From: a virus
Taxonomy: Duplodnaviria > Heunggongvirae > Uroviricota > Caudoviricetes
Virus record (IMG/VR): IMGVR_UViG_2925919700_000003
Coordinates: 1-13,319 of that record
Strand: one strand, 5' to 3'
DNA: 13,319 nucleotides
Shown here: positions 3,116-12,385 of the stretch, piece by piece
How positions within the stretch are numbered: the stretch's first letter is position 1
How the letters are laid out: every line of letters starts with the position of its first letter
Position numbers and translations under genes: made by a program
The notes under the pieces: generated by a model
Databases searched by the model: none
The model's input: only the letters and a program-made list of their open reading frames with translations
What the model was told of the DNA's origin: nothing

Positions 3116-3420
3116 GCCCCGGTGAACGCCTGAATGGACTTAATCACATTGCGGAGTTAAGGGCGAAAGTTTTTGGCCTGAATATTGAGTCAGAGCTTGA
3201 GCGGTTTATTAAAGATATGCGTGATCCATGGGATATCAATAATGAACAAAATAAAAGGGCACTGGCTGCCATATTCTTTATGGCAAAAATTCCAGCTGAA
3301 CGTCATAGCATCAGCATTAATGAGCTGACCACTGACGAAAAGCGGGAGTTGATTAAAGCAATGAATCATTTTCGTGCAGTGGTGAGCTTATTTCCCAGAC
3401 GGCTAACCATGCCGAATTAA
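3079..3420 (+). CDS. Hypothetical phage early protein (113 aa)
   Basis: ATG at 3079 preceded by a GGGGGA purine run; long ORF in the early operon; no recognised motif. Confidence 0.5.
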   Translation: MAIEGTAATVPLSPGERLNGLNHIAELRAKVFGLNIESELERFIKDMRDPWDINNEQNKRALAAIFFMAKIPAERHSISINELTTDEKRELIKAMNHFRAVVSLFPRRLTMPN

Positions 3421-3721: not shown

Positions 3722-3948
3722 TGGCTGATGCAATGGATCTCGTACAGCAGCGCGTTGAAGAAGAACGCCAGCGCCATATCCGTGCAGCCCGTGCCAAATC
3801 ACCGGGCGTGTCACGCGTACTTTGCATTGAATGTGAAGCGCCAATTCCGCCAGCACGACGCCGCGCCATTCCGGGAGTGCAGCTTTGCATTACCTGTCAG
3901 GAAATCGCAGAACTGAAAGGCAAACATTACAACGGAGGTGCTGTATGA
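3721..3948 (+). CDS. TraR/DksA-family C4 zinc-finger protein
   Basis: 75 aa with CIECEAPIPPARRRAIPGVQLCITCQ (CxxC-x17-CxxC), typical of DksA/TraR-type zinc fingers found in P2-like early regions. Stop overlaps the dam start (ATGA at 3945-3948). Confidence 0.75.
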   Translation: MADAMDLVQQRVEEERQRHIRAARAKSPGVSRVLCIECEAPIPPARRRAIPGVQLCITCQEIAELKGKHYNGGAV

Positions 3949-4724
3949 GCACCATCCTGAAATGGGCGGGAAATAAAACCGCCATTATGCCAGAACTGAA
4001 AAAATACCTTCCTGCTGGCCCGCGACTGGTTGAACCTTTCGCGGGTTCCTGTGCTGTGATGATGGAAACGGATTATCCCAGCTATCTGGTTGCGGATATT
4101 AATCCTGATTTAATCAACCTCTATAAAAAGGTTGCCGCTGATTGTGAATCGTTTATATCTCGCGCCAGAGTTTTATTTGAGATCGCAAACAGGGAGGTGG
4201 CTTATTACAACATAAGGCAGGAGTTTAACTGCTCAACTGAAATTACTGATTTCATGAAAGCGGTATATTTCCTGTATCTCAATCGTCACGGTTACCGTGG
4301 TTTATGTCGCTATAACAAGAGCGGGCATTTCAACATTCCCTACGGTAATTATAAAAATCCGTATTTCCCTGAAAAAGAACTTCGCACATTTGCAGAAAAA
4401 GCCCAGCGAGCAACGTTTATCTGCGCCAGCTTTGATGAAACGCTGACGATGTTGAAGGCGGGAGATGTGGTGTATTGCGATCCGCCATATGACGGTACGT
4501 TTTCCGGTTATCACACTGATGGTTTCACTGAAGATGACCAGTATCACCTGGCATCCGTTCTTGAACATCGGTCATCAGAAGGACATCCGGTCATTGTTTC
4601 TAACAGTGACACATCCCTGATCCGTTCGCTGTATCGCAATTTTACTCACCACTATATCAAGGTAAAACGCAGCATCGGTGTGGCAGCTGGCGAGGGTACT
4701 GGAGCTGAAGGTGTACGCGGATGA
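3945..4724 (+). CDS. dam: DNA adenine (N6) methyltransferase, Dam/D12 class; C-terminus probably replaced at a deletion junction
   Basis: [11 protein letters not shown] start, PFAGS AdoMet-binding motif and DPPY catalytic motif ([10 protein letters not shown]). GGAGG 7 nt upstream. After ...[10 protein letters not shown] the last ~16 aa ([15 protein letters not shown]) do not look like a Dam C-terminus, and a tail-fibre reading frame begins at about 4678. Confidence 0.8.
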
Positions 4725-5748
4725 TCAGATGGCAAAACATCTTGCCGCACCGGACCCGCATTCACAGTATGCACAGAAAGAAAGTCCTACGTTTACCGGG
4801 ACACCCAAAGCGCCAACGCCAGCGGCGGGGAATAACACCACGCAGGTTGCGACCACAGCGTTTGTTCAGGCTGCACTGACGGCTATTATTAATGATGCGC
4901 CAGCCACGCTGGACACGCTGAAAGAAATAGCCGTAGCCATTAACAATGATCCGAAATTCAGTACCACCATTAACAATGCGCTGGCACTGAAAGCTCCGCT
5001 GTCGAGTCCGGCACTCACCGGAACGCCAACAGCCCCCACGGCGGCGCAGTCGGTCAATAATACACAGATTGCCACTACGGCTTTTGTGAAATCGGCGATT
5101 GCAGGAATGGTGGGTTCTGCACCTGCGGCACTGGATACACTGAACGAACTGGCGGCGGCACTGGGGAATGACCCGAACTTTGCCACGACAATGCTTAATG
5201 CACTGGCAGGTAAACAACCGCTGGACAATACGCTGACTAATTTGAGTGGAAAGGATGTAGCTGGTCTTCTCGCATACCTTGGTCTGGGGGAAACGATAAA
5301 TAAAGCCTCCGGAGCTATGCAGAAATCAGCTAATGGTTCTGATATTTCTGATATATCAGCCTTCCGAAATGCGCTCCGGTTAGGGGCCGCTGCAACACGA
5401 GATGTTGGAGGGGATAATGCCTCGAAGTTACTGGATTTAGACAGTTTCAGGTCAATGATGTCAGGTAATGGCTACATCTACATTCCATGCATTGCGACGA
5501 CAGGAAACCCGGTGAAACTTATGTTGCAGTGGGGAACGGTGGCAACACAAAAGGGAGCTGATGCTGGATATGCCTTACCATTTGCTTTTCCCTATGCAGG
5601 CTTGTTTGCGACCGGAAACCGTGGAACATCTGGCTACAATGCCGCGATGAATGTGCGTATTGCCAGCAGAACGCATATCAGTATTCAGAACTGGTCGCCA
5701 TCCGGAGAGGGCACCGAAGATTGTTGTTTTATCGCGCTGGGGTATTAA
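4678..5748 (+). pseudogene. Side tail fibre protein (P2 gpH / lambda Stf-like), N-terminally truncated fragment
   Basis: Open frame with no convincing start/RBS, overlapping the dam 3' end. Contains fibre repeats ([31 protein letters not shown]...NTTQ[VI]ATTAFV and TLNELAAALGNDPNFATTM.NALAGKQP). The tail-attachment N-terminal domain is absent. Confidence 0.75.
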
Positions 5749-6207: not shown

Positions 6208-7347
6208 TTATGCTGTCTTGAACTGTAAAAGCACTTTACTAATTCTTCCCGACAGTAATACAGCTGGTTTATCGAAAAGACGATAGAAACCCCAGGACAC
6301 TGGTAAGCTTATGGCTACGCAAATTATTATTGATATGAGGCTTGCTGCTAATTCATCAATGCGTAAGGACAAGTAGTTAAATGATGGTATTGCTACCGCG
6401 TAAATTAAAACCATTTGTAATAAATATAATGAGAAAGATATCTTGCCTAAAAATATTGCTGGTTTTGTAGATAGTATATTGTTAACCCCATTGCTCCTCA
6501 ATGCAAATAAAACAATAAAAATACCAGAGAATAAAAACAGGGTGTACTCAGTTAAGTAATTATTAATATCTGAGAAAATGCTTGAATAGGCATATGATTG
6601 TACTTTATATCCAGCAAAGTATAATCCAAGAATTAGGATTGCGACAGATGATTTTTTTGATAGTTTAATATTTGTCTTGTATATTACGGAGCCAGACATA
6701 AAACAAGCCAATCCATAGTATAGTGCGTCGCCATCATTGTAATAGCCTAGTGATAGGAATATAAGAAATACAATCGCTGGAAAAAGTGCGGAGTTTGTTT
6801 TCTTGGATATAAATAGTAAAGCCAGAATATATGATCCGATGAGTTCAATTTTCATGGTCCATAATACCCAGTTATAGGTCTTAACACCATCCCCACCAAA
6901 AGCACCTATTAATCCTGTGAATATGGCACCATGTAAGCTGTAATCAAAGGTTCCTAGATTTGAGGCCCATTCGGAAATGCCAGTTCTATTTATATCTATG
7001 TGTGAGTATACAGCCCATCCAATCAAACAAGAGAAAAATACTGGCACCATTAATCTTATATATCTTTTTAAAAGGAATGCAAAGAAAAGAATTGAATCAA
7101 ATCGCTTAGAGAAACTTGAAGATAAAACAAAACCACTTAATACAAAGAATACGTAGACTCCAGCAGAGCCAGAGTAAAAAAAAGAGAAAGGAGAGTTCAT
7201 GATATAACTCTCAAAAGAATACCTCATGGACTCTGCTGCATGCATATATGGGTAGAAAGTATATGCAAGATGTGAGAAAAACACAGCAAGACAGGCGATG
7301 CCTCTGAGACCGTCCGCATTACTATTGTGTTCTTGAGCAACACTCAT
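6208..7347 (-). CDS. Acyltransferase family 3 integral membrane protein (O-antigen/LPS acetylase-like); cargo gene
   Basis: 380 aa from ATG at 7345-7347 (ORF-track start at 7395 is TTG). Polytopic and very hydrophobic; N-terminal GLRGIACLAVFFSHL is typical of acyltransferase-3 (OafA/Oac-like) enzymes. Clearly more AT-rich than the flanking phage and host DNA. Opposite strand to the surrounding late genes. Confidence 0.75.
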   Translation of the reverse strand: MSVAQEHNSNADGLRGIACLAVFFSHLAYTFYPYMHAAESMRYSFESYIMNSPFSFFYSGSAGVYVFFVLSGFVLSSSFSKRFDSILFFAFLLKRYIRLMVPVFFSCLIGWAVYSHIDINRTGISEWASNLGTFDYSLHGAIFTGLIGAFGGDGVKTYNWVLWTMKIELIGSYILALLFISKKTNSALFPAIVFLIFLSLGYYNDGDALYYGLACFMSGSVIYKTNIKLSKKSSVAILILGLYFAGYKVQSYAYSSIFSDINNYLTEYTLFLFSGIFIVLFALRSNGVNNILSTKPAIFLGKISFSLYLLQMVLIYAVAIPSFNYLSLRIDELAASLISIIICVAISLPVSWGFYRLFDKPAVLLSGRISKVLLQFKTA

Positions 7348-7380
7348 GAAAATTAACCTATGTTTAGAGTAATGTAGCCT

Positions 7381-7404
7381 AAAACGCCTAATCAAAAATA
7401 GGCG
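7381..7404 (-). promoter_or_regulatory. Small hairpin plus U-run in the 5' leader of the acyltransferase gene (attenuator or terminator-like)
   Basis: Minus strand reads cgccta-tttttgat-taggcg followed by tttt, about 34 nt upstream of the acyltransferase ATG. Stem is only 6 bp, so weak. Confidence 0.25.
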
Positions 7405-7418
7405 GATACCTTTGAGGC

Positions 7419-7454
7419 CATTCTAGCCTGAGGTTACATTCTAGCCTGAGGTTA
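7419..7454. repeat. Perfect 18-bp tandem direct repeat (cattctagcctgaggtta x2)
   Basis: Two identical adjacent 18-bp units at 7419-7436 and 7437-7454, in the region between the acyltransferase start and the late promoter. Confidence 0.9.
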
Positions 7455-7577
7455 ATCAAGATACCATTATGCTTTCATATCCAATCTGGCCGGAAGCGTC
7501 GCATCTGTTTCTCGCTAAGTATCAACGTAGTAAGCATCCATCAGTTCACTGATCATTCACCTTCTTAAAACTGCTAT

Positions 7578-7595
7578 TGTGCCAGCGCTGGCACA
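7578..7595 (+). promoter_or_regulatory. Ogr/Delta-type activator binding site (TGT-N12-ACA dyad) of a P2-family late promoter (P_F-like)
   Basis: tgtgccagcgctggcaca is a perfect 18-bp palindrome fitting the TGT-N12-ACA late-promoter operator; its centre is about 84 nt upstream of the sheath-like start codon at 7670, compatible with the centre lying at about -55 from the transcription start. Confidence 0.6.
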
Positions 7596-7669
7596 GGGTT
7601 AAACGCGTGCGCCGCGTGCATATCAACCAGAACATAGGCACACCCCCTGTAAACCGGAGAGATTGCCTT

Positions 7670-7732
7670 ATGGCTCAGGATTACCACCACGGGGTGCGCG
7701 TTGTTGAAGTCAACGAGGGCAACGATGAGTGA
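7670..7732 (+). pseudogene. Remnant of tail sheath gene (gpFI-like), first ~17 codons only
   Basis: ATG at 7670 encodes MAQDYHHGVRVVEVNEG..., matching my recollection of the P2 sheath N-terminus (MSDYHHGVQVLEINEG); the frame stops after 20 codons at TGA 7730-7732, overlapping the tape-measure ATG. Confidence 0.55.
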
Positions 7733-8723
7733 TAACAACCTGCGTCTGCAGGTCATTCTTAATGCGGTTGACAAGCTCACCCGCCCATTTCGATCTGCGC
7801 AGGCCAGTTCAAGAGAACTGGCTGCTGCTGTCAAAAAATCCCGCGATGCAATAAAGCAGCTTGATCAGGCCGGGAGCAGTCTGGACAGCTTCCGAAAGCT
7901 GCAGGCAGAAAATCAGAAATTAGGCGACAGGCTGAACTATGCCCGCCAGCGTGCAAATTTGCTCAGTCAGGAACTGGGAGCGATGGGGCCGCCTTCGCAA
8001 CGTCAGGTTGTTGCTCTGGGCCGTCAACGGCTGGCTGTTCAGCGCCTGGAAGAACGCCAGAAAAAGCTGCAGCAGCAGACGGCGCTTGTGCGTGCTGAAC
8101 TGTACCGGGCAGGAATTTCTGCGAAAGACGATGCGGGAGCAACTGCCCGTTTAGCCCGTGAAACATCACGTTATAACCAGGAACTTTCGAAACAGGAGGC
8201 GCGGCTGAAGCGACTGGGGGAAGCTCAGCGCAGGATGAATGCAGCGCGTGCCAGTTATGCCCGTTCGCTGGAGGTGCGTGATCGTATTGCAGGTGCCGGA
8301 GCCACCACCACGGCTGCAGGGCTGGCAATGGGCGCACCAGTGATGGCGGCAGTAAAAAGCTATACCAGCATGGAAGATGCCATGAAAGGTGTGGCAAAGC
8401 AGGTCAATGGTCTGCGTGACGATAATGGCAACCGCACTGCACGTTTTTATGAAATGCAGGATGCCATCAAGGCTGCCAGCGAACAGTTGCCGATGGAAAA
8501 CGGTGCGGTGGATTTCGCTGCACTGGTTGAAGGTGGTGCGCGCATGAACGTCGCAAACCCTGACGACAGTTGGGAAGATCAGAAACGTGACCTGCTGGCC
8601 TTCGCCAGTACGGCAGCAAAGGCGGCAACAGCCTTTGAGCTGCCAGCGGATGAACTGTCAGAAAGTCTGGGGAAAACCGACGTCCGTCCACGCAGTTTCT
8701 GGGACCGGAAAACGACATGCTGA
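7725..8723 (+). pseudogene. Tail tape measure protein (gpT-like), N-terminal ~330 aa, truncated
   Basis: ATG at 7725 (MSDNNLRLQVILNAVDKLTRPF...), GAGGG upstream; coiled-coil-like Q/R/A-rich N-terminal region. Frame ends at 8723, far too short for a P2-size tape measure, and a gpU-like frame opens at 8654. Confidence 0.7.
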
Positions 8724-9058
8724 CGCTTTCCGGTGTTCTTATGCCGGAAATAACAGGCGGCAGGCTGTCGTTGCTGGCACTGGAGCAGATGGCAGAACAG
8801 GGGAAAGCATGGCCCCTGATTGAAGGCAGCGGCACGATTTACGGCATGTATGTGATTGAGGGACTGAATCAGACTAAAACGGAGTTTTTCCGCGACGGTA
8901 TGCCGCGCCGGATTGAGTTCACCCTGTCGCTCAAACGAGTGGATGAATCCCTGTCCGATATGTTCGGTGATCTCAGTGCGCAACTGAATAATCTGCAGGA
9001 CACGGCAACGTCTGCCTTAAGCGATATCAGTAAAACGGTGGGAGGGCTGCTGTCGTGA
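8654..9058 (+). pseudogene. Tail protein gpU-like, N-terminally truncated fragment
   Basis: Frame open from 8654 (first ATG at 8717); ...FLGPENDMLTLSGVLMPEITGGRLSLLALEQMAEQGKAWPLIEGSGTIYGMYVIEG... resembles the P2 gpU central/C-terminal region. Its stop overlaps the gpD start (GTGA at 9055-9058). Confidence 0.6.
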
Positions 9059-10155
9059 ATTTCAGCTCTGAACTGCTTAACAAAGGCAACAAAACTCCCG
9101 CATTCAGCATCAGTATTGAGGGCAGGGATATCACCACTGTGCTGGATAACCGCCTGATGAGTTTGACGCTGACGGATAACCGGGGCTTTGAAGCGGACCA
9201 GCTTGATCTGGAGCTGGACGACGCTGACGGAAAAATCGTGCTGCCGCGCCGTGGTGCGGTCATTACGCTGGCGCTGGGCTGGAAGGGGCAGCCGCTTTTC
9301 CCTAAAGGGGCATTCACAGTGGACGAGATTGAACACACTGGCGCACCGGACCGCCTGACTATCCGGGCGCGAAGTGCTGATTTTCGGGAAACGCTGAATA
9401 CCCGCCGTGAAAAATCGTGGCATAAGACCACCGTCGGGGAAGTGGTGAAGGAAATAGCCGCGCGGCACAAGCTGAAGATGGCACTGGGTAAAGACCTGTC
9501 AGATAAACCCGTGGAGCATATAGACCAGACTAATGAGAGTGACGGCAGTTTTCTGATGCGGCTGGCGCGACAGTACGGTGCCATCGCGTCGGTGAAAAAT
9601 GGCAATCTGTTATTCATCCGGCAGGGGCAGGGCAAAAGCGCCACTGGTAAACCTCTGCCAGTGATCACTATCACACGCAAGGACGGCGACAGTCACCGAT
9701 TTACCCTGGCAGATCGCGGAGCCTACACGGGCGTAATTGCCAGCTGGTTGCATACCCGCGAACCTGCGAAGAAAGAAAGCACCACGGTGAAGCGTAAGCG
9801 CAGAACTAAGAAGCAGAAGAAAGAGCCAGAAGCGAAGCAGGGCGATTACCTGGTGGGTACGGATGAAAACGTGCTGGTACTTAATCGCACTTATGCCAAC
9901 CGGAGCAACGCCGAACGAGCGGCGAAAATGCAGTGGGAACGCCTGCAACGCGGCGTTGCGTCATTTTCGCTACAACTGGCAGAAGGGCGGGCAGATCTCT
10001 ACACGGAAATGCCAGTGAAAGTCAGTGGCTTTAAACAGCCGATAGATGATGCGGAATGGACCATTACGACTCTGACGCATACCGTCAGTCCGGATAACGG
10101 TTTTACGACCAGTCTGGAGCTTGAAGTGAGGATTGATGATTTCGAAATGGAATGA
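9055..10155 (+). CDS. D: Tail protein gpD-like (late tail gene D)
   Basis: 366 aa from GTG at 9055 with GGGAGGG about 8 nt upstream; sits between U and ogr as in P2; similar in size to P2 gpD as I remember it. Confidence 0.75.
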   Translation: MNFSSELLNKGNKTPAFSISIEGRDITTVLDNRLMSLTLTDNRGFEADQLDLELDDADGKIVLPRRGAVITLALGWKGQPLFPKGAFTVDEIEHTGAPDRLTIRARSADFRETLNTRREKSWHKTTVGEVVKEIAARHKLKMALGKDLSDKPVEHIDQTNESDGSFLMRLARQYGAIASVKNGNLLFIRQGQGKSATGKPLPVITITRKDGDSHRFTLADRGAYTGVIASWLHTREPAKKESTTVKRKRRTKKQKKEPEAKQGDYLVGTDENVLVLNRTYANRSNAERAAKMQWERLQRGVASFSLQLAEGRADLYTEMPVKVSGFKQPIDDAEWTITTLTHTVSPDNGFTTSLELEVRIDDFEME

Positions 10156-10245
10156 TTCTTCGCAATAGAGAACTTTTAAGTTTGCAAAATGGAATAATGC
10201 GATATCATTATTGTGAATTTAGCAAAAATGGGGAGAGCTCGAAAA

Positions 10246-10464
10246 ATGATGATTTGCCCACTGTGTGGAAGTACCGCCCATACTCGCAGCAGTTTTCAGG
10301 TATCTTCATTGACCAAAGAGCGTTACAACCAGTGCCAGAACATTAACTGCAGCCATACTTTTGTTACCCATGAAACTTTTGTTCGTTCGATTGCTACGCC
10401 AAAAGAGTCAAATCCGGTTCAGCCGCATCCAATGAAATCAGGACAGGTGGCGCTCTCTCTTTGA
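10246..10464 (+). CDS. ogr: Ogr/Delta-family zinc-finger late-gene transcriptional activator
   Basis: 72 aa from ATG at 10246 with GGGGAGAG 8 nt upstream. MMICPLCGSTAHTRSS...KERYNQCQNINCSHTF has the Cx2C-x22-Cx4C arrangement and the KERYxQCQN motif characteristic of P2 Ogr / 186 B. Confidence 0.9.
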   Translation: MMICPLCGSTAHTRSSFQVSSLTKERYNQCQNINCSHTFVTHETFVRSIATPKESNPVQPHPMKSGQVALSL

Positions 10465-10486: not shown

Positions 10487-10543
10487 TCGTTAAAAAACAG
10501 TGCTTCTAACATCATGATTTTAAACAGCATAAATTTCAGGCAA

Positions 10544-10587
10544 CAAAAAACCCATCAACCTTGAACCGAAATGGCGGGGTTGATGGG
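10544..10587 (-). terminator. Rho-independent terminator downstream of ybjL
   Basis: 10-bp perfect stem cccatcaacc / ggttgatggg (10551-10560 and 10578-10587) with 17-nt loop; on the minus strand it is followed by TTTTTTG; about 110 nt past the ybjL stop. Confidence 0.55.
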
Positions 10588-10699
10588 CTCCACAAAATGG
10601 GGACATCAAAGAAAAGCAGTGGCATTAATTAAGACTGATGCCCTGCGGAAAAGTTCTGCGGTTGTGCAAAAAAATTTCATTTTCAGGGCAACTTCAGTT

Positions 10700-12385
10700 T
10701 TATCCTAATCCTGGCCATACCATGACGATGATTGTCCCTGCCAGCGTCAGCAGGACGTTGGCGATTGCGTAGGTGCCCGCATAGCCCAGCGCAGGGATGT
10801 TACTGCGAGCTGTATCACTGATGATCTCCATTGCCGGCGCGCAGGTGCGTGCGCCCATCATTGCGCCGAACAACAGTGCGCGGTTCATTCGCAATACATA
10901 AGCACCGAACAAGAAACAGATAACCACGGGCACAAGACTGACAATTAATCCGGCAATCAACATCTGACCGCCAATCGCGCCCAGGCCGTTATTAATACCG
11001 CTACCGGCGCTCAGACCAACGCCTGCCATAAACACCATCAAGCCGAACTCTTTCACCATGCTTAATGCACCTTGCGGAATGTAACCGAAGGTCGGGTGGT
11101 TAGCACGCATAAAGCCCAGCATAATTCCGGCGAATAACAACCCGGCAGCGTTCCCCATGCCGAAACTGAATGTGCTGAACTGGAAGGTGATCATCCCGAT
11201 CATCAGCCCAATAACAAAGAAGGCGCAAAATGCCAGCAGGTCAGTGACCTGGCTGTGAATCGAGATAAAGCCGATGCGATCGGCGATGGTTTTTACGCGA
11301 CGGGCATCACCGCTGACTTGTAAAACGTCACCTTTGTTAAGCACGACGTTGTCATCTATCGGCATCTCAATCTGGCTACGAATGACGCGGTTAAGGAAGC
11401 AACCGTGATCGGTCAACTTCAGTTGTGCGAGACGTTTACCTACAGCGTTATGGTTTTTAACGACCACTTCTTCAGTGACGATACGCATGTCGAGAAGGTC
11501 ACGATCGAAAACTTCTTTACCGTTACGGAAGCTGGGATCGAGTCGGGCATGGGCGTCGGGATAGCCTACCAACGCTATTTCATCGCCCATTTGTAGCACG
11601 GCATCACCGTCTGGATTTGCCAGAATCCCGTTACGTCGAATACGTTCAATGTAGCAGCCGGTTTGTCGATAAATACCCAGTTCACGCAGATTTTTGCCGT
11701 CGGTCCAGGCCACCAGCTCCGGGCCGACGCGATAGGCGCGGATCACCGGTAAATAAACCTTACGGTTGGCATCAGTGTCCAGGCCACGTTCGCGGGCGAT
11801 TTGCTGGGCGCTGGTCTGTAAGTCCTGATGCTGCAATTTCGGCAAGTAACGCGCACCAACAATCAAACTCACCAGACCGATTAAATAGGTTAAGGCATAC
11901 CCGAGGCTCAGATTATCCAGTGCCAGTGAGAGCTGCCTGCTTTCCATGCCGGAATGACGCAGTGTATCGCCAGCACCGACCAGAACCGGTGTCGACGTCA
12001 TAGAGCCTGCTAACATACCGGCCGTCAGGCCAATATCCCAGCCAAACAGCTTACCTAACCCTAAGGCGATCACCAGCGCACTGCCAACCATCACCAGTGC
12101 TAACATTAGGTAATTTTTCCCATCGCGAAAAAAAATGGAAAAAAAGTTCGGTCCGGCTTCGACCCCGACGCAGAAAATAAACAGCATAAAGCCAAGATTA
12201 AGCGCATCGGTGTTAATGCTGAAATGTTGTTGGCCTAATAACAGCGATACGACTAAAACGCCAATGGAATTACCCAGTTGGATCGAACCAAGTCGTAACT
12301 TTCCGAGACATAGCCCAAGCGCGAGGACCACAAATAATAACAGAATGTAATTCCCATTTAACAATTCGGCGACGTTTATATTCAC
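10700..12385 (-). CDS. ybjL: Putative transport protein YbjL (AAE-family transporter with central TrkA-C/RCK-type domains)
   Basis: 561-aa polytopic membrane protein; sequence ([24 protein letters not shown]...) recognised as E. coli YbjL. GTG start in the ORF track, no clear SD. Confidence 0.9.

Follow-up and report, generated by a model that had tools for sequence, protein, structure and literature searches.

How does a phage late promoter come to stand in front of a reading frame of 20 codons, and does such an arrangement represent a retained regulatory device or a by-product of prophage decay? This question is raised by a stretch of E. coli prophage DNA of 13,319 nt, referred to here as the window. 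The original prediction held that an Ogr operator and its late promoter survive there in front of gene fragments, the start of the sheath gene being fused to the start of the tape-measure gene, and that the resulting unit could still respond to a superinfecting phage or to a satellite activator. We compared the window with intact relatives, with the annotated records of 186 and P2, and with other genomes and assemblies that carry the same remnant.

The element, its insertion site and its relatives

Analysis of the open reading frames and of their Pfam matches (Table 1) indicates that the window very probably holds a decayed prophage of the 186/P2 type (Peduoviridae), about 10.5 kb long, in E. 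coli. The prophage is located at the 3′ end of the E. coli small RNA gene rybB, between rcdA/ybjK and ybjL. Judged by its immunity region, which CI, CII and Fil define, the element is a remnant of the 186 type. Its gene order (int-CI ... D-ogr) and the att repeats in a host gene are those of a defective P2/186-like prophage. The 14-mer AACAAAAAACCCAT, which forms the att core at the right end, recurs at the element's left end in a Logan locus (L007, 2185-2200), and a Logan contig encoding an identical T′ protein shows the complete element of ~10.5 kb, running from rcdA/ybjK to rybB-ybjL. Neither the list of reading frames nor the Pfam scans revealed a replication gene A or a portal, terminase, capsid, lysis, baseplate, sheath or tube gene in the window, and three internal deletion junctions were mapped in the element.

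The site itself is a published one, since P2-type elements occupy the rybB ncRNA gene in E. coli W, B and Crooks (Rybb*W, Rybb*B and Rybb*Cr; PMC3032704 Table 2). These elements share insertion site and phage type with the window element, whereas Rybb*B carries the retron Ec86 (PMC3032704), which is absent from the window.

Two intact relatives served as main references, the prophage of E. coli tcmA_3 and Escherichia phage 500465-1 (Wadgaonvirus, Peduoviridae). Both are 98-99.7% identical to the window in T, U and D, and tcmA_3 also shares its acyltransferase gene and, with 99.4% identity, its promoter and sheath start. They differ from the window element in possessing the complete FI-FII-E-E′-T-U-D set, in their ogr allele (77% identical in DNA) and in being integrated at ssrA instead of rybB.

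Table 1. Position and basis of the features assigned in the window and at its junctions
Feature	Position	Strand	Basis or remark
Integrase	1-1131	minus	Pfam scan and ORF order
186-type CI repressor, full length	1449-2024	minus	Pfam scan and ORF order
apl/cox-sized ORF	after CI in left-to-right order		ORF order
CII, Fil, DUF5347, DUF2732, DksA/TraR zinc-finger protein	right of the apl/cox-sized ORF		Pfam scans
Dam-type methyltransferase ORF	3885-4724
Tail-fibre gene, C-terminal part	4678-5748		followed by its assembly gene
Acyltransferase cargo gene ("moron")	6208-7395	minus	Pfam Acyl_transf_3; divergent from the late promoter
Putative binding dyad of an Ogr/B/Delta-type activator	7578-7595		TGT-N12-ACA; perfect 18-bp palindrome TGTGCCAGCGCTGGCACA
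-10-like hexamer GAACAT	7630-7635	+	no -35 hexamer
20-codon fusion ORF	7670-7732	+	MAQDYHHGVRVVEVNEGNDE and stop; sheath codons 1-17, last three E′ codons (N-D-E), native E′ stop
Deletion junction 1 (sheath to T)	7720-7721		CA shared; sheath side GAGGGCA/CCCGAT, E′ side GGGGCCA/ACGATG
Truncated tape-measure gene T′	7725-8723	+	~317 of 1025 codons, then 15 out-of-frame codons from U sequence
Deletion junction 2 (T to U)	8670-8676		~2.2 kb; patchy microhomology GGGGAAAAtCGcC versus GGGtAAACCGAC
U′ fragment	8717-9058	+	113 codons; N-terminal part of gpU missing
D, full length (tail/baseplate hub protein)	9055-10155	+	366 aa; Pfam Phage_GPD
Sigma-70-like promoter of ogr	10181-10208	+	TTTGCA-16-TATCAT
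ogr/B-type late activator gene, intact	10246-10464	+	72 aa; Pfam Ogr_Delta (PF04606)
Host small RNA gene rybB	10542-10620	minus	Rfam RybB, 105 bits; ybjL also to the right
att core, right end of prophage (rybB 3′ end)	10542-10555		14 nt, AACAAAAAACCCAT

A candidate late promoter upstream of the sheath remnant

A perfect palindrome with the halves TGTGCCAGC and GCTGGCACA is indeed found where the original prediction had seen one, 92 nt upstream of the ATG at 7670. It matches the consensus TGT-N12-ACA, which is stated in PMC3931495 together with the Ogr motif CX2CX22CX4C. Counted loosely, TGT-N12-ACA is no rarer in the window than expected by chance (4 matches versus 3.4 expected, a number that 84 of 200 shuffles reach), and this count was not used as evidence. 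The other matches, at 5459, 12346 and 13001, lie in the tail-fibre gene or in host DNA and were discarded as chance occurrences. The perfect 18-bp palindrome is the single one in the window, with 0.05 expected and one present in 17 of 300 shuffles.

What decides for a promoter, as far as comparison of sequences goes, is homology and not motif statistics. Over 7560-7721, the window shares 99.4% identity with three intact prophages in their promoter and sheath start, and the dyad, the spacer and the -10 are identical to those of the intact tcmA_3 prophage. Alignment with the regions upstream of the sheath gene in four intact prophages or phages, in 186 and in P2 revealed that the TTGTG core is unchanged across the seven aligned sheath promoters, 186 pJ and P2 pF included, and that the dyad falls on the B-protein site annotated for 186 and on the activator site of P2. 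The region is in all likelihood the late promoter of the sheath operon, corresponding to P2 pF and 186 pJ, which agrees with the predicted retention of such a promoter.

The features of the pF/pJ class can be recognized one by one. First, a TGT-N12-ACA dyad lies upstream of the core. Secondly, a weak -10 is present without a -35 hexamer, and a sigma-70 scan found no complete two-hexamer promoter in 7396-7669. Thirdly, the promoter occupies the head of the sheath operon, as 186 pJ and P2 pF do directly upstream of the sheath gene. The distance from the first T of TGT to the -10 is 52 nt in the window (GAACAT), 52 nt in 186 pJ (GACAAT) and 53 nt in P2 pF (GAAAAT). According to the 186 and P2 records, transcription starts 7-9 nt past those hexamers (B site 14091-14110 and start 14159 in 186; activator site 17555-17583 and start 17626-17628 in P2), and extrapolation from these annotated starts predicts that transcription would begin at ~7644. 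In the pF/pJ class the dyad is centred ~55-58 nt before the start, a distance which in the window is taken to the extrapolated start.

All three promoters display a TTGTG...CA dyad, and the left half-site TTGTGCCAG is identical in 186 pJ. In contrast, the right half is imperfect (CCA) in 186 pJ and P2 pF, whereas the window dyad is perfect and ends in ACA. The sequence between dyad and -10 is unrelated to that of 186 and P2, and where a sheath gene would follow, the window promoter is now followed by a 20-codon remnant.

The intact tcmA_3 prophage contains a further perfect TGT-N12-ACA palindrome, TTGTATCAGCACTGATACAA, at 3201-3220 of locus L003. It lies between the virion-morphogenesis (S-like) gene and the baseplate gene V, where the late promoter of the V operon is expected.

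At the predicted start, the C-run at 7643-7647 comprises five Cs in the window versus six in all four relatives, among them two Logan loci, L007 and L008, that are otherwise identical to the window. The difference may reflect either a true mutation or a sequencing error in the homopolymer.

The 20-codon frame as a product of deletion

The reading frame that follows the promoter ends after 20 codons at the start of the tape-measure gene, as had been noted. Its stop (7730-7732) overlaps the tape-measure ATG at 7725, and the two frames share 8 nt within ATGAGTGA. In intact relatives the same ATG begins a sheath gene of 1,173 bp, and the sheath gene that it begins is a full one in tcmA_3, CFT073, MS7163 and phage 500465-1. 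Of the full-length sheath frame (gpFI, ~390 aa), 17 codons are left in the window, which bears out the proposal that the frame is the remnant of a sheath N-terminus. The annotation of tcmA_3, in which a GpE-family CDS ends at 11300 and T starts at 11293, was used as a frame check. Read from these alignments, the small frame is FI(1-17)+NDE, with the native overlap between E′ stop and T start kept. Since the join keeps sheath codon 17 in the reading frame that ends at the E′ stop, T would also remain coupled as in the native arrangement.

The intact tcmA_3 prophage carries, after the promoter, the full sheath gene, the tube gene, E, E′, T (3,078 bp), U, D and ogr. Alignment with it, the approach originally suggested for mapping the breakpoint, placed the junction at a 2-nt CA microhomology. 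The sheath side of tcmA_3 reads ...GTCAACGAGGGCA/CCCGATC and its E′/T side ...AGCGGGGCCA/ACGATGAGTGATAAC, while the window reads GTCAACGAGGGCAACGATGAGTGATAAC across the junction. The crossover thus falls in the shared CA, which is preceded by patchy similarity (7 matches in the preceding 10 bases). From 7717 onward, the window is 99.4-99.7% identical to the E′/T boundary of the intact prophages. Relative to tcmA_3, 2,126 bp are missing. The loss comprises the remaining sheath gene, the tube gene and E, as predicted, together with nearly all of E′. It also includes a hairpin-plus-T-run present at the E′ start in the intact relative. The junction very probably arose by illegitimate recombination.

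Further deletions and the order of events

Downstream of the small frame, the window contains the fragments of T and U and the complete D that had been described. T′ is 99.4-99.7% identical to intact T until 8676-8679. At the second junction, the sequence leaves T at about codon 317 and enters U out of frame, ~100 nt into the gene. The Pfam match of U′ to Phage_P2_GpU covers only profile positions 45-120 of 120. D has the same length as in phage 500465-1 and tcmA_3, with 98.2% DNA identity. The U′ start codon at 8717 overlaps the T′ stop (8721-8723), and U′ in turn overlaps the start of D.

The third junction, near 4695, joins the methyltransferase region to the C-terminus of the tail fibre, and we read it as the mark of a large deletion that removed the replication, head, lysis and baseplate genes. 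The match to the tail-fibre gene of phage 500465-1 begins at 4695, and the methyltransferase and tail-fibre reading frames overlap.

Searches for the sheath-T junction revealed that the genome of E. coli MB06234, the only one of 5,426 complete E. coli genomes to carry it, contains an identical copy at this chromosomal position, and that further copies occur in Logan assemblies from two separate sequencing runs (L007 and L008). This recurrence indicates that the junction is real and lineage-specific. A 35-mer spanning it has no exact match in the collection of species-representative genomes, and the junction is therefore a strain-level feature. The second junction is present in L007 and L008 and absent from MB06234, where a longer T fragment is joined to the C-terminal part of D, with loss of U and of the D N-terminus. 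The MB06234 remnant retains gene A, the portal gene and a terminase fragment. Because the second junction occurs only in the Logan loci and not in MB06234, the sheath-T deletion is the oldest shared lesion and the later ones are specific to sublineages. The three deletions can in this way be dated relative to each other within one prophage lineage.

The activator gene and its control

The activator gene ogr is retained, as had been claimed, and encodes a protein (MMICPLCGSTAHTRSSFQVSSLTKERYNQCQNINC...) of the full length of 72 aa with the CX2CX22CX4C motif. Its Ogr_Delta match reaches 76.7 bits versus a curated cut-off of 26.3, and it shares 53% identity with the B protein of 186. On these grounds, the product is assigned to the Ogr/Delta family of zinc-finger late activators and is predicted to activate late promoters.

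The gene is preceded by a sigma-70-like promoter of its own, the -10 of which (TATCAT) is that of 186 pB, a promoter marked as CI-repressed in the 186 record. The resident ogr is probably likewise repressed by CI and not constitutively on. The CI protein encoded here is 33% identical to 186 CI. A comparison for CI operators, covering the pR-like region (2000-2160) and the ogr promoter, yielded one shared 9-mer and half-sites. The 9-mer, GAACTTTTA, is common to 2032-2040 and 10170-10178 and is statistically weak, with ~0.15 shared 9-mers expected by chance. In each of the two promoters, the pR-like early one and that of ogr, it lies just upstream of the -35, with GTGAA/GAGAA-like half-sites nearby.

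Over 10156-10464, which includes the ogr allele and its promoter, DNA identity with phage 500465-1 and tcmA_3 is 77%, versus 98-99.7% for T, U and D; the parent phage was therefore mosaic. The same interval is identical in the window and MB06234.

The predicted transcription unit

In the P2 record, a terminator past ogr stops both the ogr and the F-operon transcripts, and in the 186 record tB stops the pB and late transcripts. Given these shared terminators, late transcription normally reaches the activator gene. As a terminator scan revealed no strong, convincing terminator on the + strand between 7644 and 10464, a late transcript would span the 20-codon frame, T′, U′, D and ogr, or ~2.8 kb.

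By extrapolation from 186 and P2, the promoter would depend on an activator. Because it has no -35 hexamer, it would be off unless a protein of the Ogr family is present. Binding of the activator to the dyad, centred ~57 nt upstream of the start, would allow RNA polymerase to initiate near 7644 and to produce an mRNA comparable with the F/J operon transcript of P2 and 186. The activator could be supplied by the resident ogr, by a superinfecting P2/186-like phage or, in the form of Delta, by a P4-like satellite. The resident gene would also be driven by its own sigma-70-type promoter, probably kept off by the resident CI.

Responsiveness to Ogr is well supported by homology, through the near-identity with the promoter of intact prophages and through the geometry shared with 186 pJ and P2 pF. 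It is reasonable to expect that the unit could respond to a superinfecting phage or satellite. The originally proposed Ogr-responsive unit thus stands as regards its composition (T′, U′, D and ogr), and is refined in three respects, the element being of the 186 type, with a resident ogr that is probably CI-repressed, the fusion being in frame with the E′ stop, and the survival of promoter and ogr being no more than a young deletion would be expected to leave.

The stop codon of ogr lies 78 nt from rybB. As there is no + strand terminator between them, ogr or late transcripts could extend antisense into rybB.

Neutral decay versus retained function

The whole structure is best explained by recent, neutral decay of the prophage and not by selection for a device. 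An intact promoter and ogr are what is expected after a young deletion, the flanks of this one being 99.4-99.7% identical to intact prophages. Their intactness is not evidence of selection, and nothing else indicates selection. The element offers a clean natural case of microhomology-mediated prophage decay that happens to spare regulatory parts. The orphan promoter and the 20-codon frame are thereby explained, which is mostly of value for annotation. If the promoter still answers activators of the Ogr family, such remnants could add to the cross-talk between P2-like phages, P4-like satellites and their host.

We consider it unlikely that the promoter no longer fires, either through contraction of the C-run at the predicted start, for instance, or through a resident activator that is never made. 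In that case, the unit would be entirely inactive. The contraction is seen in the window alone, the promoter of the resident ogr is similar to the CI-repressed 186 pB, and an intact CI gene is present. However, the dyad, spacer and -10 do not differ from those of intact prophages, a change of one base at or after +1 seldom abolishes a promoter, and repression of the resident gene by CI would be no obstacle to activators provided in trans.

Somewhat less probable still is a selected, domesticated module, in which the host would keep the late promoter, T′, D and ogr as a device for sensing Ogr. Under this explanation, the T fragment could act as a decoy that poisons the tail assembly of superinfecting P2-like phages, positive feedback by Ogr could mistime their late genes, or the module could serve as a helper for P4-like satellites. 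Promoter, D and ogr do remain intact beside deleted neighbours, the fusion retains the overlap on which native E′/T translational coupling depends, and the junction persists in more than one strain. Yet the closeness of the flanks to intact prophages shows the deletion to be young, and intact parts are then expected under neutrality. In MB06234, the sister remnant lacks U and the D N-terminus, meaning that the downstream unit is not conserved whole, and the junction is confined to that one genome among the complete E. coli genomes. Moreover, an ogr gene beside attR has also been kept in the 629-bp PR-X of K-12, which fits simple positional survival.

We give slightly less credence again to a working minimal circuit, in which the late promoter would be switched on by Ogr, B or Delta arriving from outside and read-through would produce more resident Ogr in a positive feedback. 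The truncated T protein and gpD, made as well, could then interfere with tail assembly or late-gene timing of superinfecting P2-like phages, or help P4-like satellites, and transcription would run antisense into rybB, a sigma-E small RNA gene. If this were true, the antisense read-through would couple phage infection to envelope-stress regulation.

That the 20-codon frame is a normal small gene of the phage group, or the junction an assembly artefact, has a negligible probability and is refuted by the full sheath gene that the same ATG starts in the intact relatives, none of those examined having the frame as a separate gene, and by recurrence of the exact junction both in a finished genome and in assemblies built from separate sequencing runs; the reading as a sheath remnant stands.

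Comparison with the K-12 remnant PR-X

Work by Slettan and colleagues from 1992 in J Bacteriol is said to have found the ogr genes of K-12 and B functional. Retention of ogr in prophage remnants is already documented for E. coli K-12, and the window element is a further example. The cryptic K-12 prophage PR-X is, like it, a P2-type remnant with an intact ogr (ogrK), accompanied by a D fragment (yegZ). This "ogr-D′" remnant sits at the small RNA gene cyaR, its attachment site (PMC3032704 Table 2; K-12 annotation). PR-X differs in its size of 629 bp and in being without late promoter, T and U, whereas int, CI, early genes, the late promoter, T′, U′ and a complete D remain in the window element.

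The acyltransferase gene and the adjacent intergenic region

The slot that the acyltransferase gene occupies, with the tail-fibre genes on one side and the sheath gene on the other, is variable. The gene is intact in the window, and its product may still modify the cell surface. The same gene is found upstream of an intact sheath gene in E. coli tcmA_3 and CFT073, whereas the slot holds fun(Z) in P2 and a DNA invertase in phage 500465-1. The region between the acyltransferase gene and the late promoter contains an exact tandem duplication of 18 bp (CATTCTAGCCTGAGGTTA twice, 7419-7454). This duplication is present in the window, L007 and L008, and the sequence occurs as a single copy in MB06234 and in the intact tcmA_3 prophage.
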